Shown here piece by piece: positions 2,092 through 48,845 of a stretch of DNA of 64,000 bases. Position numbers and translations under genes: made by a program. The stretch is from Acidimicrobiia bacterium. Lineage in GTDB: Bacteria; Actinomycetota; Acidimicrobiia; Spongiisociales; UBA5794. Where the stretch lies: NCBI GenBank assembly GCA_041605955.1, contig JBFIXI010000006.1:26853-90852 (forward strand). The letters run 5' to 3'. Each line of letters starts with the position of its first letter. The stretch's first letter is position 1. Below the pieces are notes generated by a model. It saw only the letters and a list, made by a program, of their open reading frames with translations, searched no databases and was not told where the DNA came from.

Positions 2092-2760
2092 ATGGCGACC
2101 GCCCGGACCGATCCACCGCAAGACCCCGCCGGCAAGGCATCAGACCGCGCCGGTCTGCAGCGGCGTGCCCTCCGACTCGAGTACGCAACCATTGCGTGGA
2201 ACGTCGGCGAGGCGGTCTTGACGATCACTCTCGGGGTGTTGGCCGGATCGCTGGCGCTGATCGGCTTCGGGACGGATTCGATCATCGAGCTGTTCGCATC
2301 TTCCGTCGTGGTGTGGCACCTAGCCCCACGTCATGCCGTCGACCGGCCGGAGCGCACCCGGCGGGCGCTGCGGCTCGTGGCGGTCGCCTTCGCCGCCCTG
2401 GCCGTCGTGTTGATGCTCGTCAGCGTCCGTGACCTGGTGGTGGGACGCCGTCCCGGAGAGTCGCTGTTCGGCATCGTCTATTTGGCGGCCACGGCTGTCG
2501 TCATGTTCGGCCTGGCCGTCGCCAAGCGCCGTACCGCCGATCGACTCGACTCCGCACCGTTGCGCTCGGAGGCGGCGGTGACCCTCCTCGATGGGGCGTT
2601 GGCTGCTGCAACGATGATCGGTCTGACCATGAACTCCTGGCTGGAATGGTGGTGGGCCGATCCGGCCGCCGCCCTCGTGGTCGGCGTGGCCGCGGCCACC
2701 GAGGCCCGGGAGACCTGGCGGGAGGCCGCCGCAATCGGTGTGCCGACCCGCCGGCCGTGA
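2092..2760 (+). CDS. cation-efflux (CDF) family-like small membrane protein
   Basis: Multiple TM helices. N-terminal EYATIAWNVGEAVLTITLGVLAGSLALIGFGTDS resembles the CDF TM1-2 region. Confidence 0.4.
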   Translation: MATARTDPPQDPAGKASDRAGLQRRALRLEYATIAWNVGEAVLTITLGVLAGSLALIGFGTDSIIELFASSVVVWHLAPRHAVDRPERTRRALRLVAVAFAALAVVLMLVSVRDLVVGRRPGESLFGIVYLAATAVVMFGLAVAKRRTADRLDSAPLRSEAAVTLLDGALAAATMIGLTMNSWLEWWWADPAAALVVGVAAATEARETWREAAAIGVPTRRP

Positions 2761-2790
2761 GCGCGCGGGGCTACCACCTGCGCCCGCTCG

Positions 2791-3747
2791 CTATCCGCGG
2801 CGCCGCCGAATCTCCTCTGTGATCGCGGGGACCACCTCGTGGAGGTTGGCGATCACCGCGTAGTCTGCCTTGGTGACCATGGGAGCGTCGGGGTCGGTGT
2901 TGATGGCGATGACGTTCTTGCTTGCCATCATGCCCACCCAGTGTTGGATGGCGCCGGAGATGCCGCAGGCGATGTAGACCTCCGGGGCGATCACGGTGCC
3001 CGTCTGGCCGACCTGAAACTTGTGGTTCTTCCAGCCGTTGTTGGTGACCACCCGGGAGCAGCCGACGGCGCCGCCGAGCAGCTCGGCGAGCTCCTCGAGC
3101 GGGGCGAATGCCTCGGCGCTGCCCACGCCGCGGCCGCCACTCACGACGACCGGCGCAGTGGCGAGAGTGATGCCCTCCTCGGTCGTGACGCGATCGACGA
3201 TACGGGTCACGGCGGCGTCGTCCCCGAGCGATGGCACGAACTCGACGACCCTTCCGCCGCCGGCGGCGGGAGTCGCCTCCGTGGAGTGCGGAGCGATCGT
3301 CACCAGCTTCACCGCAGCTTCGAGGCGGGCCCGTTCGTGCAGGCTGCCGCCCCAGCGGACCCGAGTCATCTCCCAGGCGTCGCCCGACGCGTCGATCTCG
3401 AGGCAGTTGGCGACCAACGGCAAATCCATCACCGCGGCGACGTGTGCCATGACCTCGGCGCCCCGGTCGGTGCCGACGCCGATCACTGCAGTGGCGCCAA
3501 CCGACTTCGCCAGCTCGGCCACTGCGTCACCCCAGGCGGCCGGGGCATAGTCGGACAGCTGATCGTGGTGAATCTGATGTACTGCTGCGGCGCCGTGCTC
3601 AAAGAGCTTGTCGGCTAGCCCGTCTCCGCCGGCGCCGACCGTGACCGCGGCCACCCCGGAATCGATCGCTCGCGCCGCCGTCAAGCCCTCGAGTGCCGTC
3701 TCGGTGATCTCACCGCGATCGTGGTCGACGAGGTAGAGCGTGCTCAT
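2791..3747 (-). CDS. etfA: electron transfer flavoprotein alpha subunit
   Basis: Full-length EtfA/FixB-like sequence with an FAD-binding C-terminal region (VYIACGISGAIQHWVGM). Shares a 4-bp overlap with etfB. Confidence 0.9.
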   Translation of the reverse strand: MSTLYLVDHDRGEITETALEGLTAARAIDSGVAAVTVGAGGDGLADKLFEHGAAAVHQIHHDQLSDYAPAAWGDAVAELAKSVGATAVIGVGTDRGAEVMAHVAAVMDLPLVANCLEIDASGDAWEMTRVRWGGSLHERARLEAAVKLVTIAPHSTEATPAAGGGRVVEFVPSLGDDAAVTRIVDRVTTEEGITLATAPVVVSGGRGVGSAEAFAPLEELAELLGGAVGCSRVVTNNGWKNHKFQVGQTGTVIAPEVYIACGISGAIQHWVGMMASKNVIAINTDPDAPMVTKADYAVIANLHEVVPAITEEIRRRRG

Positions 3748-4508
3748 ACGACACCTATCCTCTCCAGCACGTCGACCACTGCGGGAGCGGCGTCGGCACC
3801 GTGGCCGAGGATCTCGGTCGGTGTCTCCTGCGACGGCGGGGCGACGAGCGTCACCATCGACTGCCCGCCCCGCTCCGCCGTGGCCTCCATGACCTTGATC
3901 TCGACCTTCTTGGCGCCGAGGCGGCCTTTGAGCGTCGGATAGCGGGGGAGGTTGATGCCCTCCTTGATGCCCAGCACCGCCGGCAGCGGAAGCTGGTATA
4001 CCTCTGAGCCGGTCGGAGTGTCGCGGCGAGCGGTCACCTCGTCATCGGCAACGTCGACGCCCTTGATACCGGACACCATCGGGCGGCCCAGCGCCCGGGC
4101 GACGCGGACGCCGACCTGGTAGCCGCCGCTGTCGGCCGACTCGTTGCCGAAGAAGATCAGGTCGAAGGTGCCGGCGTCGGCCTCGAGCTCCTGGATGGCA
4201 TTGGTCAACGCCCGGGCCGTGGCCATCGGGTCCCAGTCGGAGCCATCGGTCGTCAGCAGCACCGCCTCGTTCATCCCGACGGAGATGGCGGTGCGCAGCT
4301 GCTCCTCGGCCGCGGCGGGACCAAGCGTCATCACAGTCGACGAGCCGCCGTGTTTCTCGATCTGCTGGATGGCTTCCTCGGCGGCGCACTCCTCGTGGGG
4401 AGACACTGCGAAGCCGAGCATGTTGGTATCGATGTCTTGACCGTCGGAAGTCACGACGATCTTGGCGCCCGGCGCAGGTACCCGCTTGACGCAGGTGAGG
4501 ATCCTCAC
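3744..4508 (-). CDS. etfB: electron transfer flavoprotein beta subunit
   Basis: EtfB/FixA-like (MRILTCVKRVP, DLIFFGNESAD). Translationally coupled to the flanking genes. Confidence 0.9.
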   Translation of the reverse strand: MRILTCVKRVPAPGAKIVVTSDGQDIDTNMLGFAVSPHEECAAEEAIQQIEKHGGSSTVMTLGPAAAEEQLRTAISVGMNEAVLLTTDGSDWDPMATARALTNAIQELEADAGTFDLIFFGNESADSGGYQVGVRVARALGRPMVSGIKGVDVADDEVTARRDTPTGSEVYQLPLPAVLGIKEGINLPRYPTLKGRLGAKKVEIKVMEATAERGGQSMVTLVAPPSQETPTEILGHGADAAPAVVDVLERIGVV

Positions 4509-7018
4509 GCCTTCATCCTGGCATCATCGGGGTCGAACAGTGGCTGCGAGCCCACCCGGGCGACCTTCACCGGGAACAACTCGTTCTGGTACATGACCTG
4601 GAGGTCGGTGCCTTCGACGGCCTGCTCCGGCGGCAGGTAGGCCAGCAGCAGGTACTTGCCCACGGAGGGCCCCATTCCGGCGGAGGTGACCCGCGACACG
4701 CGGCCGTGAGAGTCGAGGATGCGCTCGCCGTCGAGCGTCAGGATCGGCTCGTTGCCTCCCATCATGTGACGAGCCACGCCCGAGGTGGACCTATGGCTCT
4801 CGACGGTCAGGGTGCACATGTGGGCCGCCGGGTCCTCGGCGCGGGCCTTCATATAGGCCTCCTTGCCGATGAAGTCGGCGTCCTTGACTCGGGGCCGGGC
4901 CAGGCCGGCCTCGACCGGGTTGTACTCGGACTCCAGCTCGGCGCCCATGAGCCGGTAGCCCTTCTCGAGGCGGCCGCTCGTGCCGTACACCCCGGCGCCC
5001 ACCGGGATGACACCGAACTCCTGTCCGGCCCCCCACAGCGCGTCCCACAAGGCCGGGCCGTTGGCCATGTCAGCGGTGATCTCCCACCCGAGCTCGCCGA
5101 CGTACGAGATGCGCAGCATCGTGACCGGGATCCCGCCGATGTTCATCCGGCGCACCCGCCCGTACGGAAAGCCCTCGTTGGAGACGTCGCCGTCCGCGAT
5201 CATCTCGACCAACCGCCGGGCGTTGGGGCCCCACACCCCGATCGTGCACAGGTCCATGGTCTTGTCCTCGAACGTCACCGAGCCGTCGGCGGGGAGCCAC
5301 TTGCGGAACCAGTACTTGTCGCGGGGCCCGTCGAAGCCGCCGGTGATGACTCGGTAGTGGTCGTCGCCGAGGCGGAGCACGGTGAGGTCGGAACGGAAGC
5401 CGCCCCGCTCGTTGAGCAGCGGCGTGTAGATGCCGCTGCCGACGGGCCGGTCGACCTGGTTGACCGTCATGTAGTTCATGTAGTCGACGACGCCGGCACC
5501 GGTGAAGTCGAAGATGGCGAATGCGGTCAGGTCGACCATTCCGGCGCTGTCGCGCAGCGCCAGGTGCTCGGCATTCTGGATCGGCGACCACCACCGGTAG
5601 TCCCACTCGTGCTCCCGGGGTGCCGGCAGCTCGTTGGCGTACTTGTCGAGGAGGCCCTTGTTCGACTCGTACCAGTGGGGCCGTTCCCAAATGCCGGCCT
5701 CGAAGTAGACCGCGCCGAGCGCTGCGGTGCGGTCGTGCAGCGATGACTTGAACAGATCGCGCCGGCTCTCCCACTGCTCGCGAGGGTGGACGATGCCGTA
5801 CGTCTTGTTGAAGTGCTCGGTGCATCTGGCGAGGATGTGCTCCTCGGTGCGCTGCGGGTCGTAGAAGCGGGCCACGTCGGAGGCGTGCGGGTCGATCTCG
5901 GGATAGCCGTGAGTCATCCACTCGGCCAACGCCCTGCCGGTTCCGGGGCCCTCCTTGATCCAGATGGCGGCGCACGACCACAGGTTCTTCACCTCGACAC
6001 TCTCGCCGACCAGCGGCATGGCGTCGGGCGTCAGCGACAGCAGGCCGTTGATGCCGTACTTCATCTCGGCGTCGCCTAGGAACGGCATCAACTCGATGGC
6101 CTGCTCCAGCTGCGGGTCGAAGTCGTCCTGAGTCAGCGGCAGCTCCGTAGGGGACAGGCGCGACTCCTCGATCGATGGGATCGTGTCGGGGTGGTGGAAG
6201 ATCGGGCGATGGGCGTACGAGCCGACCTCCATCGAGCCCCCTGTCTGGCGCTCGTAACAAAAGGTGTCCATGTCGCGGACGATCGGAAAGCCGATCTCGC
6301 TGTTGGTGGCCTGCAGCTCGTCGAGCGGCCCGACGTCGATCATCTGATGCACCGCCGGCGTCAACGGAATCGTGGCGCCGGCCATCTGGGCGAGGCGAGG
6401 GCTCCACACCCCACAGGCGACGACGACGTGCTCGGTCTCGACCCGTCCCTTGTCGGTCACCACTGCGGCGACCTTGCCGTCCTCCACCTCGATGTCGAGC
6501 ACCTCGGTGACGGGGGCAACCGTCAGCGCTCCTTTATCCATGGCGTACTGGCGCATCAACGTGCCGGCTTGGAGGGAGTCGACGACCGAGACGCTGGGCG
6601 TATACCACCCGCCGAGGATGACGGTATCGTCGATGAACGGCACGTGCTCCTTGACTTCGGCCGGCGTCAACAGCTGCGACTCGATTCCCCACGCCGTGGC
6701 CGAGGTCATGCGGCGCTTGAACTCCTCCATACGCTCCTCGGTGCGGGCGACTTCGATTCCACCGGAGACGGTGCTGACCCCCATCTCCTCGTACTGGTGC
6801 TGCGAGTCCAGCGTCAGCATGGCCATCTCTTTGTTGTGGTCGACCGGGAAGATGAAGTTGGAGGCGTGACCGGTGGAGCCCCCCGGGTTGGGGAGCGGGC
6901 CCTTGTCGATCTGAAGCATGTCCGACCAGCCGAGGGCGGCGAGATGCTTGACCACCGAATTGCCGACGATACCGGCGCCGATCACGACCACTTTCGCGCT
7001 GCTGGGGAGCTCGCTCAC
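4505..7018 (-). CDS. dimethylglycine/sarcosine dehydrogenase family flavoprotein (FAD DAO domain plus GcvT-like aminomethyltransferase/folate-binding domain)
   Basis: N-terminal KVVVIGAGIVG FAD fold and a C-terminal GCV_T-like domain. The track ORF runs to 7108, but a GTG at 7018 has an AAGGA RBS and sits just before the Rossmann motif, so it is the preferred start. Confidence 0.85.
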   Translation of the reverse strand: MSELPSSAKVVVIGAGIVGNSVVKHLAALGWSDMLQIDKGPLPNPGGSTGHASNFIFPVDHNKEMAMLTLDSQHQYEEMGVSTVSGGIEVARTEERMEEFKRRMTSATAWGIESQLLTPAEVKEHVPFIDDTVILGGWYTPSVSVVDSLQAGTLMRQYAMDKGALTVAPVTEVLDIEVEDGKVAAVVTDKGRVETEHVVVACGVWSPRLAQMAGATIPLTPAVHQMIDVGPLDELQATNSEIGFPIVRDMDTFCYERQTGGSMEVGSYAHRPIFHHPDTIPSIEESRLSPTELPLTQDDFDPQLEQAIELMPFLGDAEMKYGINGLLSLTPDAMPLVGESVEVKNLWSCAAIWIKEGPGTGRALAEWMTHGYPEIDPHASDVARFYDPQRTEEHILARCTEHFNKTYGIVHPREQWESRRDLFKSSLHDRTAALGAVYFEAGIWERPHWYESNKGLLDKYANELPAPREHEWDYRWWSPIQNAEHLALRDSAGMVDLTAFAIFDFTGAGVVDYMNYMTVNQVDRPVGSGIYTPLLNERGGFRSDLTVLRLGDDHYRVITGGFDGPRDKYWFRKWLPADGSVTFEDKTMDLCTIGVWGPNARRLVEMIADGDVSNEGFPYGRVRRMNIGGIPVTMLRISYVGELGWEITADMANGPALWDALWGAGQEFGVIPVGAGVYGTSGRLEKGYRLMGAELESEYNPVEAGLARPRVKDADFIGKEAYMKARAEDPAAHMCTLTVESHRSTSGVARHMMGGNEPILTLDGERILDSHGRVSRVTSAGMGPSVGKYLLLAYLPPEQAVEGTDLQVMYQNELFPVKVARVGSQPLFDPDDARMKA

Positions 7019-7268
7019 GGTTGTCCTTTCGAGTTGTGGTGCTCGCGCTCGGGGTACTTCAAGCACGTCCACGGGAGGGCCTCGTGCCGCCTGGCGGAAC
7101 AGGCTCACATAGTGGGACGAGATTAACCGTTGGGGCGCGATCGTGTCCAGCCGTAACCCGTTGCACTGCAGAGGCTACCCGGCGTTGACGACGTGCGCTC
7201 GGCACGACCGAGATCGCCCCATCTGAGCTGTGGACAGCGCCCCGGTGCGTGCTGTATTGTTCCGCTAT

Positions 7269-7301
7269 GCAGCACTGTTCCGCATTGTGGGAACGTGCTG
7301 C
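7269..7301. promoter_or_regulatory. nested inverted repeat GCAGCAC-TGTTCCGCATTGTGGGAAC-GTGCTGC in the divergent control region
   Basis: Perfect 7-bp outer arms enclose an inner GTTCC-N8-GGAAC. Further GCGGAAC/GTTCCGC copies lie at about 7094, 7258 and 7333. Confidence 0.45.
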
Positions 7302-7372
7302 GTAGCCGCGTCACATCGTCTGCGGGCGGTGGCGGAACGCTCCCATGCGCCATCGATAACGAGCAGGTGGAA

Positions 7373-8074
<702 letters not shown>

Positions 8075-8086
8075 AATGGTCGACCG

Positions 8087-8719
8087 GTGATATCCGGACA
8101 CGGATCGTCGCCGCCGCGGGTGTTGATTCTGGCGTGCGGGGCCTTGGCGAAGGAGATCCGCGACCTAGTGGCCGCCAACCGATGGGGCCACGTCGACCTC
8201 GAGTGCCTCCCGGCTCGGCTCCACAACACGCCCCGGGACATCCCCGCTGCCGTCGCCCACCGCTTGGAGCGAGCAGGCGATCGCTACGACCGCATCATGG
8301 TCGGCTACGCCGACTGCGGCACGGGCGGCTTGCTGGATCCCGTGATAGCCCGGTTCGGGGCGGAACGGCTTCCCGGAGCCCATTGTTACGAGTTCTACGC
8401 CGGCCGGGACGTCTTCGCCGAGCTCCACCAAGAGGAGCTAGGCACGTTCTATCTCACGGACTTTCTGGTCAAGCACTTCGACCGGATGGTGTGGAACACT
8501 TTGGGGCTCGATCAGCATCCGGAGCTGCGGGACACCTACTTCGCCAACTATCGACGGCTCGTCTATCTGGCCCAGACTGACGATCCCACCCTCGCCGCGC
8601 GAGCAGCCGCGCAAGCAGACCGCCTGGGGCTCCGCTTCGAGCATCGGCCGGTGGGATACGGCGAGATGGAGATCGAGCTTGCCCGGTTTGCCGCCGGTCG
8701 TCCCCAGGAGGCGGCGTGA
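8087..8719 (+). CDS. DUF1638 domain protein
   Basis: Recalled DUF1638 N-terminal signature (VLILACGALAKE). GTG start. The stop overlaps the next gene's start (ATGA). Confidence 0.6.
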   Translation: MISGHGSSPPRVLILACGALAKEIRDLVAANRWGHVDLECLPARLHNTPRDIPAAVAHRLERAGDRYDRIMVGYADCGTGGLLDPVIARFGAERLPGAHCYEFYAGRDVFAELHQEELGTFYLTDFLVKHFDRMVWNTLGLDQHPELRDTYFANYRRLVYLAQTDDPTLAARAAAQADRLGLRFEHRPVGYGEMEIELARFAAGRPQEAA

Positions 8720-9018
8720 ATGCCCACGTGACCATCATCATGTGGCGGGACATGCCGGCTCAGGTGGTTGCCAAGAAGGGCCGGGTGACCCACAAGATCG
8801 AATTGGCGCCGCGGTTCCAGCAGGCCATCGATCGGGCGGCGATGCGGGCCGGGTCGATCGGCAGCGACGAGTACCTCGAGGACTGGCGGCGCGAGTCCCG
8901 GCCATGCGGCGACGACCTCGAGACAGAAGCTGCTGCCGAAGCCGCCAGGATCGATGCGCAGTTCCCCCTCGACGTCTTGAACGAGTACGTGATCAACAAC
9001 GGATATCGGAGCACCTGA
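8716..9018 (+). CDS. small hypothetical protein (100 aa) co-transcribed within the methyltransferase operon
   Basis: ATGA start overlap with the upstream gene, so the two are translationally coupled. No recognisable catalytic motif. Confidence 0.45.
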   Translation: MNAHVTIIMWRDMPAQVVAKKGRVTHKIELAPRFQQAIDRAAMRAGSIGSDEYLEDWRRESRPCGDDLETEAAAEAARIDAQFPLDVLNEYVINNGYRST

Positions 9019-9041
9019 GCCGCCCCGATCAAGGAGACCAG

Positions 9042-9950
9042 ATGACCGACACAGTTGTCAGCTCGGCAACCCGCGAGGTGGTGATCGGGTTCGAGCGCCC
9101 GTTCGTCATCATCGGAGAGCGGATCAATCCGACCGGGCGCAAGATGCTTGCCGCCGAGATGAAGGCCGGCGACTACAGCCGGGTCGAGGCCGACGCCCTG
9201 GCGCAGGTGGCCGCCGGCGCCCACATGCTCGACGTCAACGCCGGCATCCCGCTGGCGGATGAGCCGGCGATCTTGGCGGAGACCGTTCAGCTCGTGCAGG
9301 CGCTCGTCGACGTGCCGCTGTCGATCGACTCGTCGATCGTCGAAGCGCTGCAAGCCGGCCTCGAGGTGTACGAGGGCAAAGCTCTCGTCAACTCGGTTAC
9401 CGGCGAGGACGAGCAAATGGAGCGAGTGCTCCCGCTGGTTGCCAAGTACGGGGCCGCAGTCGTTGCGATCACCAACGACGAGACGGGAATCTCCGAAGAT
9501 CCGGACGTCCGCTTCGAGGTGGCTCGCAAGATAGTGAACCGCGCCGCCGACCACGGCATCTCCAAGTCCGACATCGTGGTCGACCCGCTGGTCATGCCGA
9601 TCGGTGCCATGGCCTCGGCCGGCCGGCAGGTGATGAGCTTGGTGCGCCGCCTCCGCGAGGAGCTCGGCGTGAACACCACGTGTGGGGCCTCCAATGTCAG
9701 CTTTGGGCTTCCCAACCGGCACGGCATCAACGCCGCCTTCCTGACCATGGCGATCGCCTCGGGGCTCACATCGGCGATCACCAACCCGCTCGAGAAGGAG
9801 ATCGTGGAAGCGGTCATGGCGGCCGATGTGCTGGCCGGTCACGACGAGAACTGCGCCCGCTGGATCTCCAAGTTCCGTCAGTCGTCTCCTGCAGGCGCGA
9901 CCCGGCGCCGCGGTGCCGGGCGGAGACGGGGAGCGGTGGCGCCGACCTGA
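9042..9950 (+). CDS. methyltetrahydrofolate:corrinoid methyltransferase (pterin-binding, MtrH/MetH-like)
   Basis: AAGGAG RBS. Pterin-binding TIM-barrel signature (FVIIGERINPTG, NSVTGED, CGASNVSFGLPNR). Confidence 0.8.
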   Translation: MTDTVVSSATREVVIGFERPFVIIGERINPTGRKMLAAEMKAGDYSRVEADALAQVAAGAHMLDVNAGIPLADEPAILAETVQLVQALVDVPLSIDSSIVEALQAGLEVYEGKALVNSVTGEDEQMERVLPLVAKYGAAVVAITNDETGISEDPDVRFEVARKIVNRAADHGISKSDIVVDPLVMPIGAMASAGRQVMSLVRRLREELGVNTTCGASNVSFGLPNRHGINAAFLTMAIASGLTSAITNPLEKEIVEAVMAADVLAGHDENCARWISKFRQSSPAGATRRRGAGRRRGAVAPT

Positions 9951-11953
9951 TGGCCGCTGAGTACCGGATCACGTTCACGCCTTCGGGCCGTCGCGGCACA
10001 GCGATGGCCGGTACCACTGTGCTCGACGCCGCCCGGCGCCTTGGTGCCGACATCGACTCCGTCTGCGGCGGGCGCGGTATCTGTGGCCGGTGCCAGGTGA
10101 CCGTTGGCTCGGCTCCAGGCATCCCCCAGTTGCCAGATGCGCTGTCGCCGCCGGGGCCCACCGAGGTGAACTACCGGGGGCGGCGCCCTTTGGCGGCGGG
10201 TCATCGGCTGTCGTGCGCTGCGGAGATTCGCGGCGACGTCGTCATCGACGTGCCCCCCGTCAGCCAGGTGCACCGCCAAGTGGTGCGCAAGCGTGCCGAG
10301 GTTGTCGCCATCGAGATCGACCCCGTGGTGCGACTCCACTACGTCGAGGTGGCCGCGGCGACCTTGACCGACGCCGGCAGCGACCTGGGGCGCCTGATGA
10401 CGGCCCTCGAGCAGCAGTGGGAGCTGACCGACCTCGGTTACGACCCGGTGGTGCTCGCCGAGCTGCAGCCGGCGCTGGCCTCCGGCAACCACACCGTCAC
10501 GGTTGCGGTGCACGACGGGACAACGGTCACCGGAGTGTGGCCCGGCTTCCACGACAAGGCACTGGGGGTTGCCTTCGATGTTGGCTCGACCACCGTGGCC
10601 GCCCATCTGTGCGACCTGGCCAGCGGCTCGGTCGTGGCCTCGGCGGGCAGGATGAACCCACAAATCAGGTTCGGCGAGGATCTGATGAGCCGGGTGTCGT
10701 ACGTGATGATGAATCCGGGAGGCGAGGTGCAGCTCACGGCTGCGGTGCGCAGCGCCATGAACGACCTGATCGGCGAGCTCGTTGCCGAGGCCGGTGGAGT
10801 GCGCCGTGACATCCTCGAGCTAACCGTGGTCGGCAACCCGATCATGCACCACCTGGTGCTCGGCATCGACCCGACGCCGCTGGGAACGGCCCCGTTCGCC
10901 TTGGCGATCGACCGGGCGGTGCGCGCCCCAGCCGCAACGATCGGGCTCGATGTCCACCCCGGCGCCCGCCTCTACATGCTGCCGTGTATCGCCGGCCACG
11001 TCGGCGCCGATGCCGCCGCGGCGGTCCTCTCGGAAGGGCCACATCGCGACGCCGCCGTCCAGCTGCTCGTCGACGTGGGAACCAACGCCGAGATCGTGCT
11101 CGGCAGCTCGGGGCGAATCATCGCCGCCTCCAGCCCCACCGGCCCCGCCTTCGAGGGTGCCCAGATCTCCAGCGGCCAGCGGGCGGCTCCCGGCGCCATC
11201 GAGCGGGTGCGCGTCGATGCGGAGACGCTCGAGCCCCGGTTCCGAGTCATCGGCAGCGAGCTGTGGTCCGACGAGCCCGGCTTCGCCGAGGAGATCGCCA
11301 CAGGCGGCGTCACCGGAATCTGCGGCTCTGGGATCATCGAGGTCATCGCCGAGCTGTACTTGGCCGGTGTGATCAGCCACGACGGGGTCATCGGCGGCGA
11401 GCATCCCCGCATCGTCGGCGACGGGCGCACGTTCTCCTACGTGCTCGCCGATGGCGCCGTTACCTCCAGCGGCGAGCAGATCAGGATCACGCAGAACGAT
11501 GTGCGCGCCATCCAGCTCGCCAAGGCGGCGCTGTATGCCGGAGTCAAGCTGCTGATGGACCACCTCGGAGTCGCCGCCGTCGACGAGATCCGGCTGGCCG
11601 GGGCGTTCGGCAGCCATATCGACACCAAGTACGCGATGATCCTCGGCCTGATTCCGGATTGCGATCTAGACCGGGTGTTTGCCGCCGGCAACGCGGCCGG
11701 CACGGGCTCCATGATGGCGCTGTTGAGCTCGGCGGCCCGAGCCGAGATCGAGTCGGTAGCGACCGACATCGAGAAGATCGAGACCGCAACCGAGCCTCGC
11801 TTCCAGGAGCTGTTCGTCGCCGCAATGGGGATCCCACACTCCTCCGATGCTTTCCCGAATCTGGCGCGGTCGGTGCCGCTGCCGGAGCGCACCGCGGCGA
11901 AACCTCGGCCCGAGCGGCGGCGGCGGGCCCGTGACGGAGGGAGCACCCCTTGA
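9950..11953 (+). CDS. ramA: corrinoid reductive activation enzyme (RamA-like: 2Fe-2S ferredoxin domain plus ASKHA ATPase domain)
   Basis: N-terminal CGGRGICGRC ferredoxin cluster motif, followed by the large COG3894-type domain. The start overlaps the upstream stop by 1 nt. Confidence 0.75.
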   Translation: MAAEYRITFTPSGRRGTAMAGTTVLDAARRLGADIDSVCGGRGICGRCQVTVGSAPGIPQLPDALSPPGPTEVNYRGRRPLAAGHRLSCAAEIRGDVVIDVPPVSQVHRQVVRKRAEVVAIEIDPVVRLHYVEVAAATLTDAGSDLGRLMTALEQQWELTDLGYDPVVLAELQPALASGNHTVTVAVHDGTTVTGVWPGFHDKALGVAFDVGSTTVAAHLCDLASGSVVASAGRMNPQIRFGEDLMSRVSYVMMNPGGEVQLTAAVRSAMNDLIGELVAEAGGVRRDILELTVVGNPIMHHLVLGIDPTPLGTAPFALAIDRAVRAPAATIGLDVHPGARLYMLPCIAGHVGADAAAAVLSEGPHRDAAVQLLVDVGTNAEIVLGSSGRIIAASSPTGPAFEGAQISSGQRAAPGAIERVRVDAETLEPRFRVIGSELWSDEPGFAEEIATGGVTGICGSGIIEVIAELYLAGVISHDGVIGGEHPRIVGDGRTFSYVLADGAVTSSGEQIRITQNDVRAIQLAKAALYAGVKLLMDHLGVAAVDEIRLAGAFGSHIDTKYAMILGLIPDCDLDRVFAAGNAAGTGSMMALLSSAARAEIESVATDIEKIETATEPRFQELFVAAMGIPHSSDAFPNLARSVPLPERTAAKPRPERRRRARDGGSTP

Positions 11954-13488
11954 CGGAACGCAGGGGACGGCGCGGCGGCGGCCGGGCGGCCCGGCAAGCG
12001 GCCCGCACCGCCGCCACGCTCGAGTCGGTCCCATTCCTGACGCGGCAGCTGGCCCCGGTCGAGGTTATGTCGACCGAGGGCCTGGAGATCATCGAGCACA
12101 ACGCCGACACCCTCTTGGAGCAGGTTGGCGTCGAGATCGTCGGATACGACGAGGCTTTGAAGATCTTTGCCGATGCCGGCGCCGACGTCACCGACACCCG
12201 GGTTCGATTCCCCCGCGGGATGTGTCGCCAGATCATCCAGGCGGCGGCGCCGAAATCGTTCACCCAACACGCGCGTAACCCGCAGCGGTCTGTCGTGATC
12301 GGCGACCCGCACACGGTGCTCGTTCCCGCCTACGGGTCACCGTTCGTGCGCGATCTCGAAGGCGGCCGCCGCTATGCGACGATCGAAGACTTCAACAACT
12401 TCGCCAAGCTGAGCTATATGTCGCCGGCGCTACATCACAACGGGGGGACGCTGTGCGAGCCGGTCGATCTTCCCGTCAACAAGCGCCATCTCGACATGGT
12501 CTACGCCCACATCAAGCACTCCGACAAGCCGTTCATGGGGTCGGTCACCCATCCCGACCGGGCGGCCGACTCGGTGGAGATGGCGCGTATCGTATTTGGG
12601 GCCGACTACATGGAGGAACACACGGTCATCCTCGGCCTGGCCAACGCCAACTCACCGATGTCGTGGGATTTCAACATGCTGGGGTCGGCCAAGGTGTACG
12701 CCGAGGCCAACCAGGCAACGCTGATCACACCCTTCATCCTGGCAGGGGCGATGTCGCCGGTCACCGTCGCCGCCGCAGCGACTCAGACGTTGGCGGAGGC
12801 GCTTGCCGGTCTGGCGTTCACGCAGATCGTGCGACCCGGCGCTCCCGTCATATTCGGGTCGTTCGCCAGCTCGATGTCGATGCAGTCGGGGGCGCCCACG
12901 TTCGGCACTCCAGAGCCGCAGCTCGTCCTCTATACGATGGCGGCTCTGGCACGTCGAGTCGGTGTGCCGTTCCGGTCCGGCGGCAACTTCACCGCCTCCA
13001 AGATCCCCGATGCCCAGGCCGCGTACGAGTCTGCGATCAGCTTCCTGCCCGCCATCCAGGCCGGGGTCAACTTCCTGCTGCATACCGCCGGATGGCTCGA
13101 GGGGGGACTGGCGATGGGCTACGAGAAGTTCGTCATCGACGCCGATCAAGCCTCGATGATGGCGAAGTGGGTCCAGGGAGTCGCCGTCGACGAGAACGGC
13201 CTTGCCCTCCAGTCGATGCTCGACAACGGCCCGGGACAGCACTTCCTCGGCACCGCGCACACCCTGGCCAACTTCGAGACGGCTTTCTGGAGCTCGCGGC
13301 AGTCCGACAACAACAGCTTCGAGCAGTGGCTCGAGGACGGAGCGAAGGACTCGGTGACGAGAGCCCACGAGACTTGGAAGCGAATGCTCGCCGAGTACGA
13401 GCCGCCGGCGTTCGACGATGCCAAGGACGAGGAATTGTCTGAGTGGATTGCCGCCAAAAAGGCCTCCGTCCCCGACAGCGACGTTTAG
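11950..13488 (+). CDS. MttB-superfamily (trimethylamine methyltransferase family) non-pyrrolysine methyltransferase, candidate glycine betaine (or other quaternary amine):corrinoid methyltransferase
   Basis: Arg-rich N-terminus (RRGRRGGGRAARQAAR) then LESVPFLTRQLAPVEVMSTEGLEIIEH, typical of the family. The ORF is continuous with no in-frame TAG. TTG start overlaps the ramA stop, with an alternative ATG at 12067. Confidence 0.8.
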   Translation: MTERRGRRGGGRAARQAARTAATLESVPFLTRQLAPVEVMSTEGLEIIEHNADTLLEQVGVEIVGYDEALKIFADAGADVTDTRVRFPRGMCRQIIQAAAPKSFTQHARNPQRSVVIGDPHTVLVPAYGSPFVRDLEGGRRYATIEDFNNFAKLSYMSPALHHNGGTLCEPVDLPVNKRHLDMVYAHIKHSDKPFMGSVTHPDRAADSVEMARIVFGADYMEEHTVILGLANANSPMSWDFNMLGSAKVYAEANQATLITPFILAGAMSPVTVAAAATQTLAEALAGLAFTQIVRPGAPVIFGSFASSMSMQSGAPTFGTPEPQLVLYTMAALARRVGVPFRSGGNFTASKIPDAQAAYESAISFLPAIQAGVNFLLHTAGWLEGGLAMGYEKFVIDADQASMMAKWVQGVAVDENGLALQSMLDNGPGQHFLGTAHTLANFETAFWSSRQSDNNSFEQWLEDGAKDSVTRAHETWKRMLAEYEPPAFDDAKDEELSEWIAAKKASVPDSDV

Positions 13489-13497
13489 GAGACGACA

Positions 13498-14355
13498 GTG
13501 TTGTTCAAGCGCAAGGTGGAGGCATCCCCGGCGGGCAAGGCGGCGATCCGGGCGCTGTTGGAAGATCTGACCTACGAGCTGATCCCGCTGAGCAACGTGC
13601 TGCCGCAAGCAGAGTTCCTCCCCACCGGGGCTCGCGTGTCGGTCACCGCCTCGCCTGCCAAGGGCATGCAGGCGACGGTCGACCTGGCTCTGGAGCTGAG
13701 ACAGCGCGGCTTCGACGTCGTGCCCCACATTTCGGCCCGCTTGACAGAGGACCGCGCCCAGCTCGAGAGCATCATGAAGCAGATCGGCGACGTCGGCATC
13801 AAGAAGGCATTCGTCGTGGGCGGCGACGCCGACCCTCCGGGTGAGTACTTCGATGGCCTGTCCGTGCTCGAAGCCATGGACGAGATCGGTCACGATCTGG
13901 AGATCGGCATCCCCGCCTACCCGGAGGGACATCACTTCATTCCCGACGACTCCATCGAGCAGGCCTTGGTCGACAAGCAGCCCTACGCCTCGTACATGAC
14001 TACCCAGATGTGTTTCACCCCGGGCACGATCGCCGACTGGATCACCGGCCAGCGAGCCCGCGGCATCCACCTTCCCGTGTCGATCGGGATCCCCGGCGTT
14101 GCCGAGCTGCGCAAGCTGATCGGTATCTCGGCCCGTATCGGTGTCGGCGACTCGCTGAAGTTCGTCACCAAGAACACCGGTCTCGTCGGCAAGCTGGTCC
14201 GGCCCGGCGGCTACGCCCCCGACGACCTGATCATCGGCTTGTCCGAGACGCTGGTGGACATCGACGCCAACATCATCGACTTCCACTGCTACACGTTCAA
14301 TCAGGTCGAGAGCACGGAAGAGTGGCGGAAGTCCATGCTCGAGTCGCTCGAGTAA
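13498..14355 (+). CDS. metF: 5,10-methylenetetrahydrofolate reductase
   Basis: AGGAGA RBS before a GTG start. MetF-like TIM-barrel sequence, 285 aa. Confidence 0.8.
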   Translation: MLFKRKVEASPAGKAAIRALLEDLTYELIPLSNVLPQAEFLPTGARVSVTASPAKGMQATVDLALELRQRGFDVVPHISARLTEDRAQLESIMKQIGDVGIKKAFVVGGDADPPGEYFDGLSVLEAMDEIGHDLEIGIPAYPEGHHFIPDDSIEQALVDKQPYASYMTTQMCFTPGTIADWITGQRARGIHLPVSIGIPGVAELRKLIGISARIGVGDSLKFVTKNTGLVGKLVRPGGYAPDDLIIGLSETLVDIDANIIDFHCYTFNQVESTEEWRKSMLESLE

Positions 14356-14452
14356 CGCTCGCTCGAGTAGGGCTGGAGTCGCTCGAGTAGGCAAGAACGG
14401 GGGCACCCACGCGTGCCGACCCGCAGCGGGTTCCCTGCATTCTCGGCATCGG

Positions 14453-14902
14453 CTACACCCCGATGTCCTCGTTCCACAGCTCGGGGTGGGAGGCGACGAA
14501 CTCGTCCATCAGCGCCTTGCACTCGGCGTCGTCGACGATCGTCAGTTCGACACCACGGCTGCGGACGTAGTCCTCGGGGCCCCGGAACGTGCGGTTCTCG
14601 CCGACCACGATGCGCGGAATCCCGTACAGCAAGGCAGCGCCCGAGCACATGTCGCACGGCGACAGCGTGGAGTACAACGTCGCCCGCTGGTACTGGCCGG
14701 CGGGCAGGCGCCCGGCGCTCTCGAGACAATCCATCTCGGCGTGCAGTATCACGCTGTTGCGCTGCACCCGCCGATTGTGCCCCCGACCGACTATTTCGCC
14801 GTCGATGACCAACACCGATCCGATGGGTATCCCGCCGGCGGCGCGACCCCCCTTCGCCTCGTCGATGGCGGCCTGCAGGAATGGGTCGTCGCTGATGAAC
14901 AC
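14453..14902 (-). CDS. CDA-fold nucleoside deaminase (cytosine/guanine deaminase-like)
   Basis: Zn-binding HAEMDCLE and SPCDMC motifs. Confidence 0.75.
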   Translation of the reverse strand: MFISDDPFLQAAIDEAKGGRAAGGIPIGSVLVIDGEIVGRGHNRRVQRNSVILHAEMDCLESAGRLPAGQYQRATLYSTLSPCDMCSGAALLYGIPRIVVGENRTFRGPEDYVRSRGVELTIVDDAECKALMDEFVASHPELWNEDIGV

Positions 14903-14952
14903 CTCCCCAGCAGGAAGAACCTAGCTCCCCGTAGTGATGCACCGCCGCGGCG

Positions 14953-15267
14953 TTAGAAGAGCCAGTCGAGGATCCACAGGCTCACCAAGCCTACGCCGAT
15001 CGTCCATCCGATCGATTTCGTCTTCCACGCCACCGTGATGGCGATGAGCCCGGCGATCAAGCGCAGATTGCCGAAACTGATGTCGACGGTATCGAACGGA
15101 GCCACTACCTCGGGAATGGCGATCGCGGCGATGACCGCAGGCGCCACCAGGCGCAACGGACGCTCCACGTACGTGGGGATCTCTCGGCTGCCGAGTATCC
15201 CAACGAACGACAGCCGGGTCAGGTAGGTGCCGACGCCCACGATGATCACCACGAGCCAGGGGCTCAT
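14953..15267 (-). CDS. azlD: branched-chain amino acid transport protein AzlD family
   Basis: Hydrophobic protein of about 104 aa. ATG at 15267 overlaps the azlC stop (ATGA). The track ORF is longer, but its upstream part is not hydrophobic. Confidence 0.6.
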   Translation of the reverse strand: MSPWLVVIIVGVGTYLTRLSFVGILGSREIPTYVERPLRLVAPAVIAAIAIPEVVAPFDTVDISFGNLRLIAGLIAITVAWKTKSIGWTIGVGLVSLWILDWLF

Positions 15268-15971
15268 CGCAACGACCTCCACTCGAAGATCGACCCGGCC
15301 GCCACCCCGGCCAGCGAAGCAACGATGATGCCGGTCCCATTGGGCAGTTCCAGGCCGGCGACGGCGACCACGCCACCGACGACGGCGGCAACCGCCGCCG
15401 GTCTCGAGGAGATCGCCGGGGCTAGCAGACCGAGGAACACGAGGGCGATGGCGAAGTCCAGCGACCACTCCGGAGGAACCTGCGCCCCGACGACCAAGCC
15501 GACCAGGGTCGCCAGTTGCCATGCCACCCACAACGTGAGCGCCGTGCCGAGGTAGTACCACTTCACGGTGGTGGCGTCGCTGTCCCGCTCGTAGCGACTA
15601 GCCGAGAGCACGAAAGCCTGATCGGTGAGAATGTACGGCAGCCACCAGCGGTCGAGGGGCGTCAGCTTGCTGAAGTGGGGGGCGATGGCAGCGCTGTACA
15701 TGGCGTGACGCAAGTTGATCACCAAGGGGGTGGCAACCGCGACGGCAGCGAGCGCTCCCGAGTTCAGCAGCTCGATCGTTGCGATCTGCGCGGCGCCGGC
15801 GAAGATGAGCCACGACGTGGCCCAGCCCACCCAGTTGTCGATCGGGGTGCCGGCCACGGTCACCCCGATGATGAGGCCGAACGGCACTGCTCCCAGCAAG
15901 ATCGGAGACACTGCCTTGACGCCTTCGACAAACCGTTCCCGGGGAGTCGCTACCCGCACTCCTTGCTCCAC
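15264..15971 (-). CDS. azlC: AzlC family branched-chain amino acid permease
   Basis: Polytopic membrane protein with the AzlC-like N-terminal motif (AVSPILLGAVPFGLIIGV). A GTG at 15971 is the assumed start, and it is uncertain. Confidence 0.55.
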   Translation of the reverse strand: MEQGVRVATPRERFVEGVKAVSPILLGAVPFGLIIGVTVAGTPIDNWVGWATSWLIFAGAAQIATIELLNSGALAAVAVATPLVINLRHAMYSAAIAPHFSKLTPLDRWWLPYILTDQAFVLSASRYERDSDATTVKWYYLGTALTLWVAWQLATLVGLVVGAQVPPEWSLDFAIALVFLGLLAPAISSRPAAVAAVVGGVVAVAGLELPNGTGIIVASLAGVAAGSIFEWRSLR

Positions 15972-16214
15972 ATCTGAGAGAACACCGAATCGGTCGGGGT
16001 GGTTGCACGCGACCGGCCGCCGGAGGCTAGCCCCAGTGCGCGGACCTCCGGCCCTACGCTCACACCGGTGCACCGAGATTGCCGCGCGTGACGCCGCGGC
16101 CGGCGGGTTGTTGCCGGTGGTGGCGCCCGTCACCCCCCCTTTTTGCTCGACATGGGGCGATGCCTATTCACTAACTTGGCGCCAATCGAATCTCCCGACA
16201 CGAAAGGGGTGTGA

Positions 16215-16727
16215 ATGCAGGTAAGCATGACCGTGAACGGGAGGGACGTCAGCGGGGACGTTGAACCACGGACGCTGCTCGTTCACTTCATTCGAGAGAA
16301 CCTGCGACTTACGGGCACGCACGTCGGGTGTGAGACGAGCTACTGCGGCGCATGCACCATCCACGTGAATGGCACGCCCGTCAAATCGTGCACCATGCTG
16401 GCGGTGCAAGCCGACGGCGCCGACGTCACGACCATCGAGGGCCTGGCCGACGGCCAAACCCTTCATCCGGTCCAAGAGGGCTTCTGGGAGCGCCACGGCC
16501 TGCAATGTGGGTTCTGCACCCCGGGAATGATCATGTCGGCGGCCGCGCTGCTCGCCGAGAACGACAATCCCTCGGAGGACGAGATCCGCCACGGCATCGA
16601 AGGCAACTTGTGCCGCTGCACCGGCTACCACAACATCGTGCGAGCCGTCGAATACGCCGGCGCCAAGATGCGGGGTGAGGAGCCGGCGCCGCCCGACTGG
16701 ACGCTCGACTTCGAGGGGGTCTCATGA
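16215..16727 (+). CDS. coxS: molybdo-flavoprotein hydroxylase small subunit, 2Fe-2S (CoxS-like)
   Basis: Cys motifs of the plant-type and 4-helix 2Fe-2S clusters ([22 protein letters not shown]). Confidence 0.85.
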
Positions 16728-19105: not shown

Positions 19106-19107
19106 GG

Positions 19108-46984: not shown

Positions 46985-47177
46985 ACGATTCCCTTTGCGA
47001 TTCGGCCCGATACGGGCAATGTTCCAACGACGTGGGGTTCGGTGACGCAACGCCGCGACCGGGTCCGGTATTCCATGACTAGTGACTTGATCGGCGGGGC
47101 GAATCCGCCTTCTGGTGGACCAGACACAGCTGGTACTATTCGTGGCAACTTCGACTACACCGGGTAGGGCCACGGAT

Positions 47178-48800: not shown

Positions 48801-48845
48801 CCCGCCGACTTCTGGCAATCCGCTACGGGCCAATACACTCCTGCT

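Follow-up and report, generated by a model that had tools for sequence, protein, structure and literature searches.

A divergent gene cluster proposed to join corrinoid- and flavin-dependent demethylation of glycine betaine in an uncultured Acidimicrobiia bacterium

Few osmolytes or methyl sources of seas and soils are as abundant as glycine betaine. Not until 2025 was it established how its first methyl group is removed aerobically, and the answer covers marine Proteobacteria alone. A 64-kb stretch of DNA from an uncultured Acidimicrobiia-like actinobacterium (hereafter the window, meaning the whole stretch that was analysed) contains, at positions 2791–14355, two tightly packed divergent operons with ten genes in total. 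One encodes a corrinoid methyltransferase system and the other a flavoprotein together with an electron transfer flavoprotein (ETF). The question raised by this locus is whether the two operons serve a single pathway and are switched together. From the comparisons described below, we consider it probable that the region is a co-regulated divergon for the aerobic breakdown of glycine betaine, in which a B12-dependent step would be followed by a flavin-dependent step. The host probably lives aerobically, as its genes for cytochrome c maturation and the pathway through flavin and ETF suggest.

Gene content of the two operons

Searches with Pfam and NCBIfam profiles recovered every gene that the first-pass annotation of this DNA had named, each in the place where it had been located (Table 1). 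The shared spacer described there also exists, but its length came to 354 bp (7019–7372) and not 355 bp once ribosome-binding sites had been used to refine the gene starts. The minus-strand operon is ordered as a flavoprotein resembling dimethylglycine dehydrogenase or dimethylglycine oxidase (DMGDH/DMGO), etfB and etfA; the order on the plus strand is corrinoid protein, DUF1638, PF13769, methyl-tetrahydrofolate (methyl-THF):corrinoid methyltransferase, RACo activase, MttB-family methyltransferase and MetF-like reductase. Junctions inside each operon range from -4 to +23 nt, and the eight gene models that were looked up are exact matches to called proteins of a public collection.

Table 1. Coordinates of genes and putative regulatory features in the divergent cluster (window positions)
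Feature	Position	Strand	Basis or detail
etfA, electron transfer flavoprotein alpha subunit, 318 aa	2791..3747	-	Pfam ETF and ETF_alpha; exact match to called protein
etfB, electron transfer flavoprotein beta subunit, 254 aa	3744..4508	-	Pfam ETF
Dimethylglycine oxidase/dehydrogenase-family flavoprotein, 837 aa, FAD and GcvT-like folate domains	4505..7018	-	Pfam, in order: DAO, FAO_M, GCV_T, GCV_T_C; exact match to called protein
Operator-like boxes 1 and 2, tandem pair of the 17-bp palindrome GTNCCNC-N3-GNGGNAC	7084-7100, 7102-7118		Directly downstream of putative dehydrogenase promoter
Putative promoter of dehydrogenase-etfBA operon	7120..7149	-	-35 TGGACA (7149-7144), 18-nt spacer, -10 TAATCT (7125-7120)
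Putative promoter of corrinoid operon	7231..7260	+	-35 TGGACA, 18-nt spacer, -10 TATTGT
Operator-like boxes 3 and 4, tandem pair	7259-7275, 7277-7293		Overlap the -10 and likely transcription start of corrinoid operon
MtgC-like corrinoid (B12-binding) protein, 233 aa	7373..8074	+	Pfam B12-binding_2 and B12-binding; exact match to called protein
DUF1638 protein, 210 aa	8087..8719	+	Pfam DUF1638
PF13769 ('Virulence_fact') protein, 100 aa, conserved module member	8716..9018	+	Pfam
Methyl-corrinoid:tetrahydrofolate methyltransferase, MtgA/MtgD-like, 302 aa	9042..9950	+	Pfam Pterin_bind; exact match to called protein
RACo/RamA-like reductive activase of corrinoid proteins, N-terminal [2Fe-2S] domain, 667 aa	9950..11953	+	Pfam Fer2, RACo_linker, Raco_middle, RACo_C_ter
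Non-pyrrolysine MttB-superfamily methyltransferase, candidate glycine betaine:corrinoid methyltransferase (MtgB-like), 512 aa	11950..13488	+	Pfam MTTB (PF06253), 722 bits; exact protein listed in protein collection
MetF2-like methylenetetrahydrofolate reductase paralog, 285 aa	13498..14355	+	Pfam MTHFR, 33.8 bits (cut-off 24)

The flavoprotein gene begins with a GTG codon at 7018, preceded by the ribosome-binding site GAAAGGA. Over its full length, the protein matched best among solved structures to the dimethylglycine oxidase of Arthrobacter (1PJ5, 527 bits). A full-length alignment with 1PJ5 revealed identical residues at the flavinylation site His48, at the catalytic positions His225 and Tyr259, and at the folate-site Asp552, the column of which was located via the D552A mutant chain 3GSI. 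The first-pass annotation had allowed for a dehydrogenase acting on an unrelated substrate; the identity of the closest solved relative and the retained catalytic and folate residues suggest that this is not the case. The start of etfB overlaps the stop of the dehydrogenase gene by 4 nt, as the start of etfA does the stop of etfB, and in 60 of 61 orthologous loci the dehydrogenase gene is followed directly by etfB. Both etfB and etfA are translationally coupled to and co-transcribed with the flavoprotein gene, yet the product of the latter is nearer to the oxidase than to the ETF-linked mammalian dehydrogenases (about 280 bits). EtfAB is the candidate electron acceptor, with O2 as the alternative.

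In the plus-strand operon, the pterin-binding protein matched NCBIfam PRK07535 (methyltetrahydrofolate:corrinoid/iron-sulfur protein methyltransferase) at 373 bits, over the cut-off of 259, and its best solved relative is MeTr 2YCK. The corrinoid protein had the glycine betaine-specific MtgC as its top NCBIfam match, at 208 bits and hence under the curated cut-off of 370, and the top match of the activase, AcsV, also fell under the cut-off of that family. For the MetF-like protein, whose gene closes the module in most related loci, the best solved relative is the 5,10-methylene-THF reductase 7XG9 (112 bits). DUF1638 has been linked genetically to B12 reactivation in Phaeobacter from fitness data (PMC5764234) and is induced on betaine (PMC12478193). 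The PF06253 match of the MttB-family protein spans residues 8–508 of an uninterrupted ORF in which no in-frame amber (pyrrolysine) codon occurs. This protein scored 651 bits against 4YYC, 395 bits against MtgB of Desulfitobacterium hafniense (2QNE/9YCE) and 119 bits against pyrrolysine MttB, the last being the one enzyme of other specificity in the comparison.

The Pfam scans covered 49 predicted ORFs of the window, that is, all but a few small ones. Among these 49, there was no betaine transporter, no sarcosine oxidase or dehydrogenase, and no SHMT, FolD, PurU or ETF:quinone oxidoreductase. A PF02574 homocysteine methyltransferase was likewise not found among the ORFs scanned, and this bears on another use to which the corrinoid genes could be put, namely methionine synthesis. 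Here MetF would reduce methylene-THF, supplied in part by the flavoprotein, to methyl-THF, from which the methyl group would travel via the pterin-binding and corrinoid proteins to a homocysteine methyltransferase whose gene lies elsewhere. In Ruegeria and Phaeobacter, methionine synthesis does require these corrinoid and pterin-binding proteins as well as RamA and DUF1638 (PMC5764234; PMC12478193), and the split synthase for methionine in Phaeobacter inhibens (Price et al. 2018, PMC5764234) draws on the same families for its corrinoid protein, pterin-binding protein, RamA-like activase and DUF1638. That synthase, however, requires a PF02574 homocysteine methyltransferase, in place of which the window has an MttB-family methyl donor enzyme, and the latter, whose gene is translationally coupled within the operon and forms an integral part of it, has no role in methionine synthesis. 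Moreover, on betaine the MetF2 paralog and MtgBCD of Ruegeria rise while the homocysteine module falls (PMC12478193). We regard a locus devoted to methionine synthesis as quite improbable; a dual role of the operon, in betaine demethylation as well as in methionine synthesis, may exist.

Conservation of the arrangement and the candidate substrate

The same divergent layout was found at 8 genome loci and 18 metagenome loci (26), mostly from Acidimicrobiia, a recurrence well beyond what chance would produce. The close relative L081 shares the divergent arrangement but has other genes on its flanks. Co-conservation of the two operons, which the first-pass annotation had proposed as a check, was borne out from the dehydrogenase side: an MttB-family gene or the corrinoid module was also present in 51 of the 52 informative loci with a dehydrogenase ortholog. 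Other lineages unite the same two functions in different gene orders, and the seven-gene corrinoid module recurs in Acidimicrobiia, Chloroflexota, Actinomycetes, Gaiellales and some Proteobacteria. That the two operons became neighbours by chance or recent rearrangement, with neither a functional nor a regulatory link, would accord with the 15 of 38 long-flank module loci in which no later-step gene was found within 10 kb, and with the lack of an adjacent regulator gene in the window. Such an origin is already contradicted by the comparative data, that is, by the 26 divergent loci with varying flanks, by the dehydrogenase-side association and the other gene orders, and by the boxes shared between both promoters (see below); it appears extremely improbable.

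Of 46 module loci, 30 have one or more of the following genes no farther than 10 kb away: OpuAC, a GMC oxidoreductase of BetA type, an aldehyde dehydrogenase of BetB type, SoxBDAG, a member of the DMGDH family, and ETF. Since modules stand beside OpuAC, BetA-like, BetB-like and SoxBDAG genes, glycine betaine is indicated as the probable substrate, an assignment drawn entirely from context. In related loci from actinobacteria, the module is accompanied by SoxBDAG, a separate sarcosine oxidase, and no sarcosine enzyme was found in the window, which leaves the earlier suggestion that one flavoprotein removes both remaining methyl groups unsupported.

In MtgB of D. hafniense, experiments have defined Tyr97, Arg312, His348 and Phe356 as the residues that bind betaine (PMC13080624). 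Three of these four are kept in the protein of the window, as equivalents of Tyr97 (AYGSPF), Arg312 (VPFRSGG) and His348 (LLHTAG), whereas the equivalent of Phe356 is Gly (HTAGWLEGG versus HTAGILQYF). Phe356 is needed for betaine binding in D. hafniense MtgB, where an F356L substitution raises the Km several hundred-fold (PMC13080624). A Trp four residues before this position might supply the aromatic contact instead; the GWLEGG motif is also present in the structure 4YYC and in the related loci compared. The substrate named in the first-pass annotation has genomic context in its favor and the non-conserved Phe356 position against it.

These observations also bear on whether the same architecture serves another substrate, with the MttB-family enzyme acting on proline betaine, carnitine, gamma-butyrobetaine, choline or phosphocholine and the flavoprotein on the matching tertiary amine. 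The MttB superfamily includes members specific for several betaines (PMC13080624; PMC12478193, discussion), the Phe356 equivalent is missing, and the NCBIfam equivalog cut-offs were reached by neither the MttB and corrinoid proteins nor the dehydrogenase. In addition, close but orphan MttB homologs in Chloroflexota (73–76% identity) lie in a different context, adjoining OYE-type DgcA/StcD-like flavoproteins and a Dpp-type ABC transporter. On the other hand, the neighbours of the module elsewhere belong specifically to the betaine pathway (OpuAC, BetA-like, BetB-like, SoxBDAG), the flavoprotein is matched best by a dimethylglycine oxidase whose catalytic residues it keeps, and the Tyr97 equivalent is retained in the ortholog group of the window while it is lost in more distant paralogs. 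We judge a different substrate to be unlikely.

The shared spacer and its operator-like boxes

A palindrome of 17 bp, GTTCCAC-N3-GTGGAAC, is conserved in tandem copies at both divergent promoters, and the architecture of one promoter mirrors that of the other. Box 1 is free of mismatches, and no other site in the 64-kb window matches perfectly; there are two mismatches in box 2 and one each in boxes 3 and 4. Boxes 1 and 2 recur as a pair, at an unchanged position, in the intergenic regions of orthologs. Of 68 loci, 47 have a box with no more than one mismatch in the 300 nt that precede the gene of the corrinoid protein, as compared with 2.9% of shuffled sequences, and the density of boxes was 7.6 per kb in orthologous spacers versus 0.85 per kb in the background. 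The loose pattern (up to two mismatches) was not enriched across the window as a whole (57 found, 72 expected); the signal is one of clustering, near-perfect matches and conservation.

The putative promoter of the corrinoid operon is the only sigma-70-like site that a consensus scan found in 2600–14600, and both of its hexamers are conserved in orthologs. The putative promoter of the dehydrogenase operon was read by eye and located by script, and is conserved in the orthologous loci L081 and L001; because it lies under the threshold of the consensus scanner, we treat it as predicted. The presence of tandem palindromes at both promoters argues for co-regulation of the two operons, the lack of which the first-pass annotation would have taken as a refutation.

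Rfam gave no match at gathering thresholds over the whole window, and a permissive Rfam search of 6950–7450 for a riboswitch or known RNA gave chance-level matches only. The 5' leader of the window itself folds into a 17-bp hairpin (z = -2.6). As RNA hairpins, however, the boxes were rejected: the consensus fold of 11 orthologs reached only -2.4 kcal/mol with zero compensatory pairs, and since no RNA fold is conserved across these orthologs a DNA operator is preferred. An IclR protein is common in related loci, and a regulator of this type probably binds the 17-bp boxes; a tblastn search with that IclR protein returned no regulator gene in the window.

Proposed pathway and relation to known systems

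In the pathway that we propose, the MtgB-like enzyme would demethylate glycine betaine once, loading the methyl group onto the Co(I) form of the MtgC-like protein and leaving dimethylglycine as the product. The MtgA/MtgD-like pterin-binding methyltransferase would pass this methyl group on to tetrahydrofolate, and the MetF2-like enzyme would oxidise the resulting methyl-THF to methylene-THF. The RACo activase with DUF1638, and perhaps PF13769, would return oxidised Co(II) corrinoid to active Co(I). The divergently encoded flavoprotein would convert dimethylglycine to sarcosine, its GcvT-like domain capturing the C1 unit as methylene-THF and its electrons passing to the co-transcribed EtfAB. 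The two operons would switch together through a repressor that binds the tandem palindromes at both promoters; this protein is probably a member of the IclR family whose gene lies elsewhere in the genome. Gene content, gene order, the conserved arrangement, the retained catalytic residues and the conserved boxes are observed directly, and the substrate, the direction of flux, ETF as acceptor, the regulator's identity and the fate of sarcosine are the parts that we infer. The core of this route (first methyl to THF via the corrinoid system with oxidation by MetF, a later N-methyl removed by the DMGDH-family enzyme with ETF and THF) had been outlined in the first-pass annotation; it fits all of the comparative evidence, and it matches experiments on the homologous proteobacterial system (PMC12478193; bioRxiv 10.64898/2025.12.19.695462). 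The accompanying remark on the lack of a described case no longer holds (Mausz et al., PNAS 2025; Hammer et al., bioRxiv 2025): the pathway is well supported but not new, having been published in 2025 for marine Proteobacteria.

The near-obligate association of dehydrogenase-EtfAB with the MttB-family gene or module, together with the shared operators of this locus, led us to a further idea, that under physiological conditions the ATP-dependent RACo activase receives its electrons from ETF that the oxidation of dimethylglycine has reduced, in a relay of which PF13769 and DUF1638 could be parts. We offer it as a long shot. If true, the second demethylation would pay for the reductive repair of the oxygen-sensitive corrinoid of the first, and this would explain how a Co(I) methyltransferase can stay active in aerobes.

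The locus appears to place a cobalamin-dependent route and a flavin/ETF step in a single co-regulated cluster of uncultured Acidimicrobiia. Two leads emerge from it, the cross-phylum 17-bp operator with its probably IclR-type regulator and the conserved PF13769 subunit; the terms 'virulence' and 'IclR' are absent from the main text of PMC12478193. Related modules in Chloroflexota, Gaiellales and other Actinomycetota suggest that B12-dependent betaine turnover extends to a wider range of taxa, and the cluster offers a compact gene set for heterologous reconstitution.

In the GbcAB, DgcAB and SoxBDAG route of Pseudomonas and Chromohalobacter, betaine is converted via dimethylglycine and sarcosine to glycine, with flavoproteins in the later steps. 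Its first step is catalysed by a Rieske monooxygenase that releases formaldehyde, and its dimethylglycine step by the OYE-type DgcA. The overall goal is the same, whereas the first step proposed here is a corrinoid methyl transfer to THF; a DgcA-like enzyme flanks the orphan MttB homologs of Chloroflexota, and none was found in the window. The anaerobic D. hafniense MtgB, a TIM-barrel enzyme of the MttB superfamily, aligns over its full length with the protein of the window, and its cognate corrinoid protein (MtgC) and methyl-THF methyltransferase (MtgA) are encoded alongside, as here. In anaerobes, dimethylglycine is not oxidised further by an adjacent flavoprotein, unlike the route proposed here. 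The dimethylglycine oxidase of Arthrobacter globiformis (1PJ5) and mammalian dimethylglycine dehydrogenase (5L46, 4PAB) have the same four-domain architecture as the flavoprotein; the mitochondrial dehydrogenase uses ETF, which is the likely acceptor here too.

MtgBCD, MetF2, RamA and DUF1638, followed by flavin/ETF-linked demethylation, have been described in Ruegeria and Phaeobacter (Mausz et al., PNAS 2025, PMC12478193; Hammer et al., bioRxiv 10.64898/2025.12.19.695462). [quoted passage not shown] The proposed flow is also the same, from betaine to dimethylglycine with the methyl group passing to THF and then being oxidised. Later demethylation genes have been reported near mtgBCD in several marine Proteobacteria, and ETF genes are among those most strongly induced by betaine in Phaeobacter (PMC12478193; bioRxiv 10.64898/2025.12.19.695462). 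Whereas the genes are scattered in these proteobacteria, those of the uncultured actinobacterium form one ten-gene divergon that includes the dehydrogenase and etfBA. The homocysteine-methyltransferase module MtgE of the Ruegeria/Phaeobacter system is not in view here; in turn, the cluster of the window adds a conserved PF13769 gene and a conserved 17-bp operator-like box.

Layout and conservation of the two operons

Ten genes in two divergent operons were resolved at positions 2791–14355 of the window (G+C content, ~66%) from an ORF list, the G+C of third codon positions and scans with Pfam and NCBIfam. With gene starts placed by ribosome-binding sites, the divergent pair described in the first-pass annotation was borne out almost to the base. 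Within each operon, neighbouring genes meet with gaps of −4 to +23 nt; a 354-bp spacer separates the two operons. Eight gene models were looked up in a public collection and all were identical to the called proteins; the gene call of a close relative gives the same 837-aa flavoprotein and 233-aa corrinoid protein products.

Features of the divergon, its spacer and its surroundings (window coordinates)
Feature	Position	Strand	Remark
Cation diffusion facilitator (Cation_efflux)	2092–2760	+	abuts etfA
EtfA	2791–3747	−	
EtfB	3744–4508	−	
DAO/FAO_M/GCV_T/GCV_T_C flavoprotein	4505–7018	−	837 aa
Box 1	7084–7100		tandem with box 2
Box 2	7102–7118		tandem with box 1
Putative promoter, TGGACA-18 nt-TAATCT	7149–7120	−	mirror image; directly before box 2
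Putative promoter of corrinoid operon, TGGACA-18 nt-TATTGT	7231–7260	+	only sigma-70-like site found in 2600–14600
Box 3	7259–7275		tandem with box 4
Predicted leader hairpin	7264–7306	+	boxes 3/4 and flanking bases
Box 4	7277–7293		tandem with box 3
B12-binding corrinoid protein	7373–8074	+	233 aa
DUF1638 protein	8087–8719	+	
PF13769 protein	8716–9018	+	100 aa
Pterin-binding methyl-THF:corrinoid methyltransferase	9042–9950	+	
RACo/RamA-like activase	9950–11953	+	
Non-pyrrolysine MttB-family methyltransferase	11950–13488	+	
Divergent MTHFR (MetF-like)	13498–14355	+	
Cytidine/deoxycytidylate-type deaminase and AzlC	14453–16133	−	downstream of MetF-like gene
CoxS/CoxL/CoxM-like molybdenum hydroxylase	16215–19974	+	three genes: [2Fe-2S], molybdopterin, FAD subunits
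RTX-repeat protein, then cytochrome c maturation cluster	47115–55235	+	ABC ATPase, CcmB, CcmE, CcmF, CcmH, thioredoxin-like

The nearest MttB homologs are 72–87% identical and come, where named, from metagenome-assembled Acidimicrobiia; one syntenic locus is from Candidatus Spongiisociaceae (Acidimicrobiia). Species-representative genomes were queried with the MttB protein and metagenomes with the flavoprotein, and 161 loci were mapped by tblastn. Starting from MttB, the seven genes of the corrinoid module formed a stable unit in Acidimicrobiia, Chloroflexota/Limnocylindrales, Actinomycetes, Gaiellales, Thermoleophilia and a few Proteobacteria. Among the 38 module loci with at least 9 kb of upstream flank, plus one with a shorter flank (L014), the same divergent dehydrogenase-etfB-etfA operon was found in eight (L014 counted), all Acidimicrobiia or unclassified; in 15 further loci, different DMGDH-family, ETF or SoxBDAG genes were no more than 10 kb away, in varied order, and in another 15 none of these genes was in view. 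From the dehydrogenase side, etfB is the next gene after the dehydrogenase in 60 of 61 loci, and an MttB-family gene or module is present in 51 of the 52 informative loci (18 with the divergent layout, seven with the module at another place in the locus, and 26 with a more distant MttB paralog right after etfA). The link from the dehydrogenase to an MttB-family gene or module is thus nearly obligate. In L081, the locus of a close relative, the ten genes are syntenic and both flanks differ. The comparison across genomes that the first-pass annotation had called for therefore found the pairing co-conserved, and the objection from lack of co-conservation fails.

The 26 loci with the distant paralog (within L099–L149 of the metagenome scan, e.g. 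L100, L103 and L108) form a second recurrent operon in the order dehydrogenase (67–69% identity), etfB, etfA, MttB paralog (39–40%) and a second DMGDH-like gene (~27%), often with FTHFS, OpuAC and BetA-like genes upstream. A different arrangement was seen in eight Chloroflexota loci (L006, L009, L011, L013, L015, L016, L020 and L078), the MttB homologs of which are 73–76% identical to the window's protein, closer than many module-linked ones. The corrinoid module is not nearby; OYE and Pyr_redox_2 flavoproteins (DgcA/StcD-like) and, in most of the eight, a Dpp-type ABC transporter flank the MttB homolog. By gene content, these loci too would join a corrinoid enzyme to a flavin demethylase.

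As for the surroundings, the Cation_efflux gene could have a role in cobalt or zinc handling; L081 has another gene in its place. L001 and L081 also have the deaminase and AzlC genes near the cluster, L081 with AzlD added, and this holds even with a 1652-aa surface protein inserted in between. The CoxS/CoxL/CoxM-like genes have no evident tie to the betaine cluster; L081 shows the beginning of them at its right edge. The cytochrome c maturation cluster is consistent with a respiratory lifestyle.

Predicted substrates and electron acceptor

To characterize the module's context, neighbouring ORFs were clustered and representatives scanned with Pfam. Neighbours in other lineages include OpuAC betaine-binding proteins, BetA-like GMC oxidoreductases, BetB-like aldehyde dehydrogenases, heterotetrameric sarcosine oxidase SoxBDAG, formate-THF ligase and an IclR-family regulator, and 30 of 46 module loci have one or more betaine-pathway genes no further than 10 kb away. 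This genomic context points to glycine betaine as the substrate of the MttB-family protein. Against solved structures, the protein scored 651 bits with 4YYC, 395 bits with Desulfitobacterium hafniense MtgB and 119 bits with pyrrolysine MttB. The entry 4YYC, a Sinorhizobium protein, bears the database title 'putative trimethylamine methyltransferase'. The betaine-binding set of MtgB consists of Tyr97, Arg312, His348 and Phe356 (2026 active-site study, PMC13080624). In a MAFFT alignment, the Tyr, Arg and His are kept in the window's protein and its orthologs, and Phe356 is replaced by a Gly within a GWLEGG motif common to 4YYC and the related loci compared. The main rival explanation is that the same machinery acts on another betaine, which we regard as improbable; that the divergon serves glycine betaine is, in our judgement, likely. 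In that alignment, the more distant MttB paralogs lack the Tyr97 equivalent too. In the second operon the paralog has Ala at this position, and its substrate may differ because the Tyr is lost.

The flavoprotein could be aligned throughout with Arthrobacter dimethylglycine oxidase 1PJ5 (527 bits; human and rat DMGDH, ~280 bits), and the flavinylation residue His48, the catalytic His225 and Tyr259 and the folate-site Asp552 are all kept. This match and these residues support two earlier proposals, dimethylglycine as the probable substrate and a C1 unit trapped in a THF-dependent way. The near-invariant and translationally coupled etfBA genes argue for ETF rather than O2 as the putative electron acceptor. 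Pfam scans of 49 predicted ORFs of the window found no sarcosine enzyme. Actinomycete loci hold both a DMGDH-family gene and SoxBDAG, which suggests that separate enzymes for dimethylglycine and sarcosine are usual.

The MetF-like protein, encoded by the final gene of the module in most loci, gave a weak Pfam score (33.8 bits); its top solved relative is 7XG9, a 288-aa 5,10-methylene-THF reductase (112 bits). It corresponds to MetF2, the paralog with the strongest induction of any protein in Ruegeria on betaine (PMC12478193). The PF13769 protein occurs in 46 of 52 loci and yielded a confident structure model (pLDDT 94), and neither sequence nor fold search returned a solved relative.

Palindromic boxes and candidate promoters in the spacer

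A 17-bp palindrome, GTNCCNC-N3-GNGGNAC, occurs four times in the spacer, in two tandem pairs with an 18-bp register; of the whole 64-kb window, box 1 alone matches it perfectly. Orthologous spacers have either the same two pairs or, immediately before the corrinoid-protein gene, one perfect box, and box density is 7.6 per kb in these spacers versus 0.85 per kb for those loci as a whole. Of 68 loci spread over several phyla, 47 have a box with no more than one mismatch in the 300 nt preceding the corrinoid-protein gene (2.9% in shuffled sequences), with L040, L050, L063 and L067 among the examples. By locus type, the counts are 23/27 with the dehydrogenase ortholog, 3/5 with ortholog and IclR, 21/30 with IclR only and 0/6 with neither. 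The consensus across loci is GTTCCAC-AWY-GTGGAAC. As judged from sequence, GTTCCAC-N3-GTGGAAC is a palindromic cis-element that accompanies the corrinoid module across phyla, usually in a locus that also has an IclR-family regulator gene.

The −10 element of the putative corrinoid-operon promoter overlaps box 3, and the mirror-image promoter of the minus strand is kept in the closest relatives. A dimeric repressor would bind the boxes at both divergent promoters; it is probably an IclR-family protein of the kind whose gene accompanies the module in 32 of 46 module loci, and tblastn with the IclR protein typical of these loci gave no match in the window. The boxes at both promoters lend sequence-level support, short of proof, to co-regulation of the two operons. 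The predicted 5′ leader of the corrinoid operon, with an MFE of −52.3 kcal/mol over its full 111 nt (z = −2.6), could also fold boxes 3 and 4 and the bases next to them into an RNA hairpin of 17 bp. RNAalifold found no conserved RNA structure over the boxes, the hairpin is not kept in 10 orthologs, and no riboswitch or other known RNA was found in the spacer.

Relation to known betaine demethylation systems

The corrinoid protein MtgC and the pterin-binding methyltransferase MtgD are needed for betaine demethylation in Ruegeria pomeroyi, where PF06253 proteins (MtgB), MetF2, RamA and DUF1638 are induced on betaine; later-step demethylation genes are often near mtgBCD in other marine Proteobacteria, and the actinobacterial share of ocean mtgC reads is ~5% (Mausz et al., PNAS 2025, PMC12478193). 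In Phaeobacter, mtgB1 was deleted, ETF genes were among the most strongly betaine-induced, and ETF was proposed to accept the electrons of dimethylglycine demethylation (Hammer et al., bioRxiv, December 2025, 10.64898/2025.12.19.695462). A RamA-like protein and DUF1638 have been tied to B12 reactivation (Price et al., 2018, PMC5764234). The first-pass annotation had the first methyl group removed by the corrinoid system and the following ones by the DMGDH-family/ETF branch; this interpretation is partly supported and, in outline, very probably correct, with glycine betaine and ETF as the putative substrate and electron acceptor and a conjectural sarcosine step. Its statement that no such case had been described is outdated, the scheme having been published (PMC12478193; bioRxiv 10.64898/2025.12.19.695462), and the window is no new kind of pathway. 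The main text of the PNAS paper (PMC12478193) mentions neither 'virulence' nor 'IclR'. Three features may be new: the putative operator box common to both operons, the conserved PF13769 protein, and the near-obligate link of this dehydrogenase-EtfAB clade to genes of the MttB family. The window holds a probable, unusually compact member of the MtgBCD system of marine Proteobacteria, in a different phylum.
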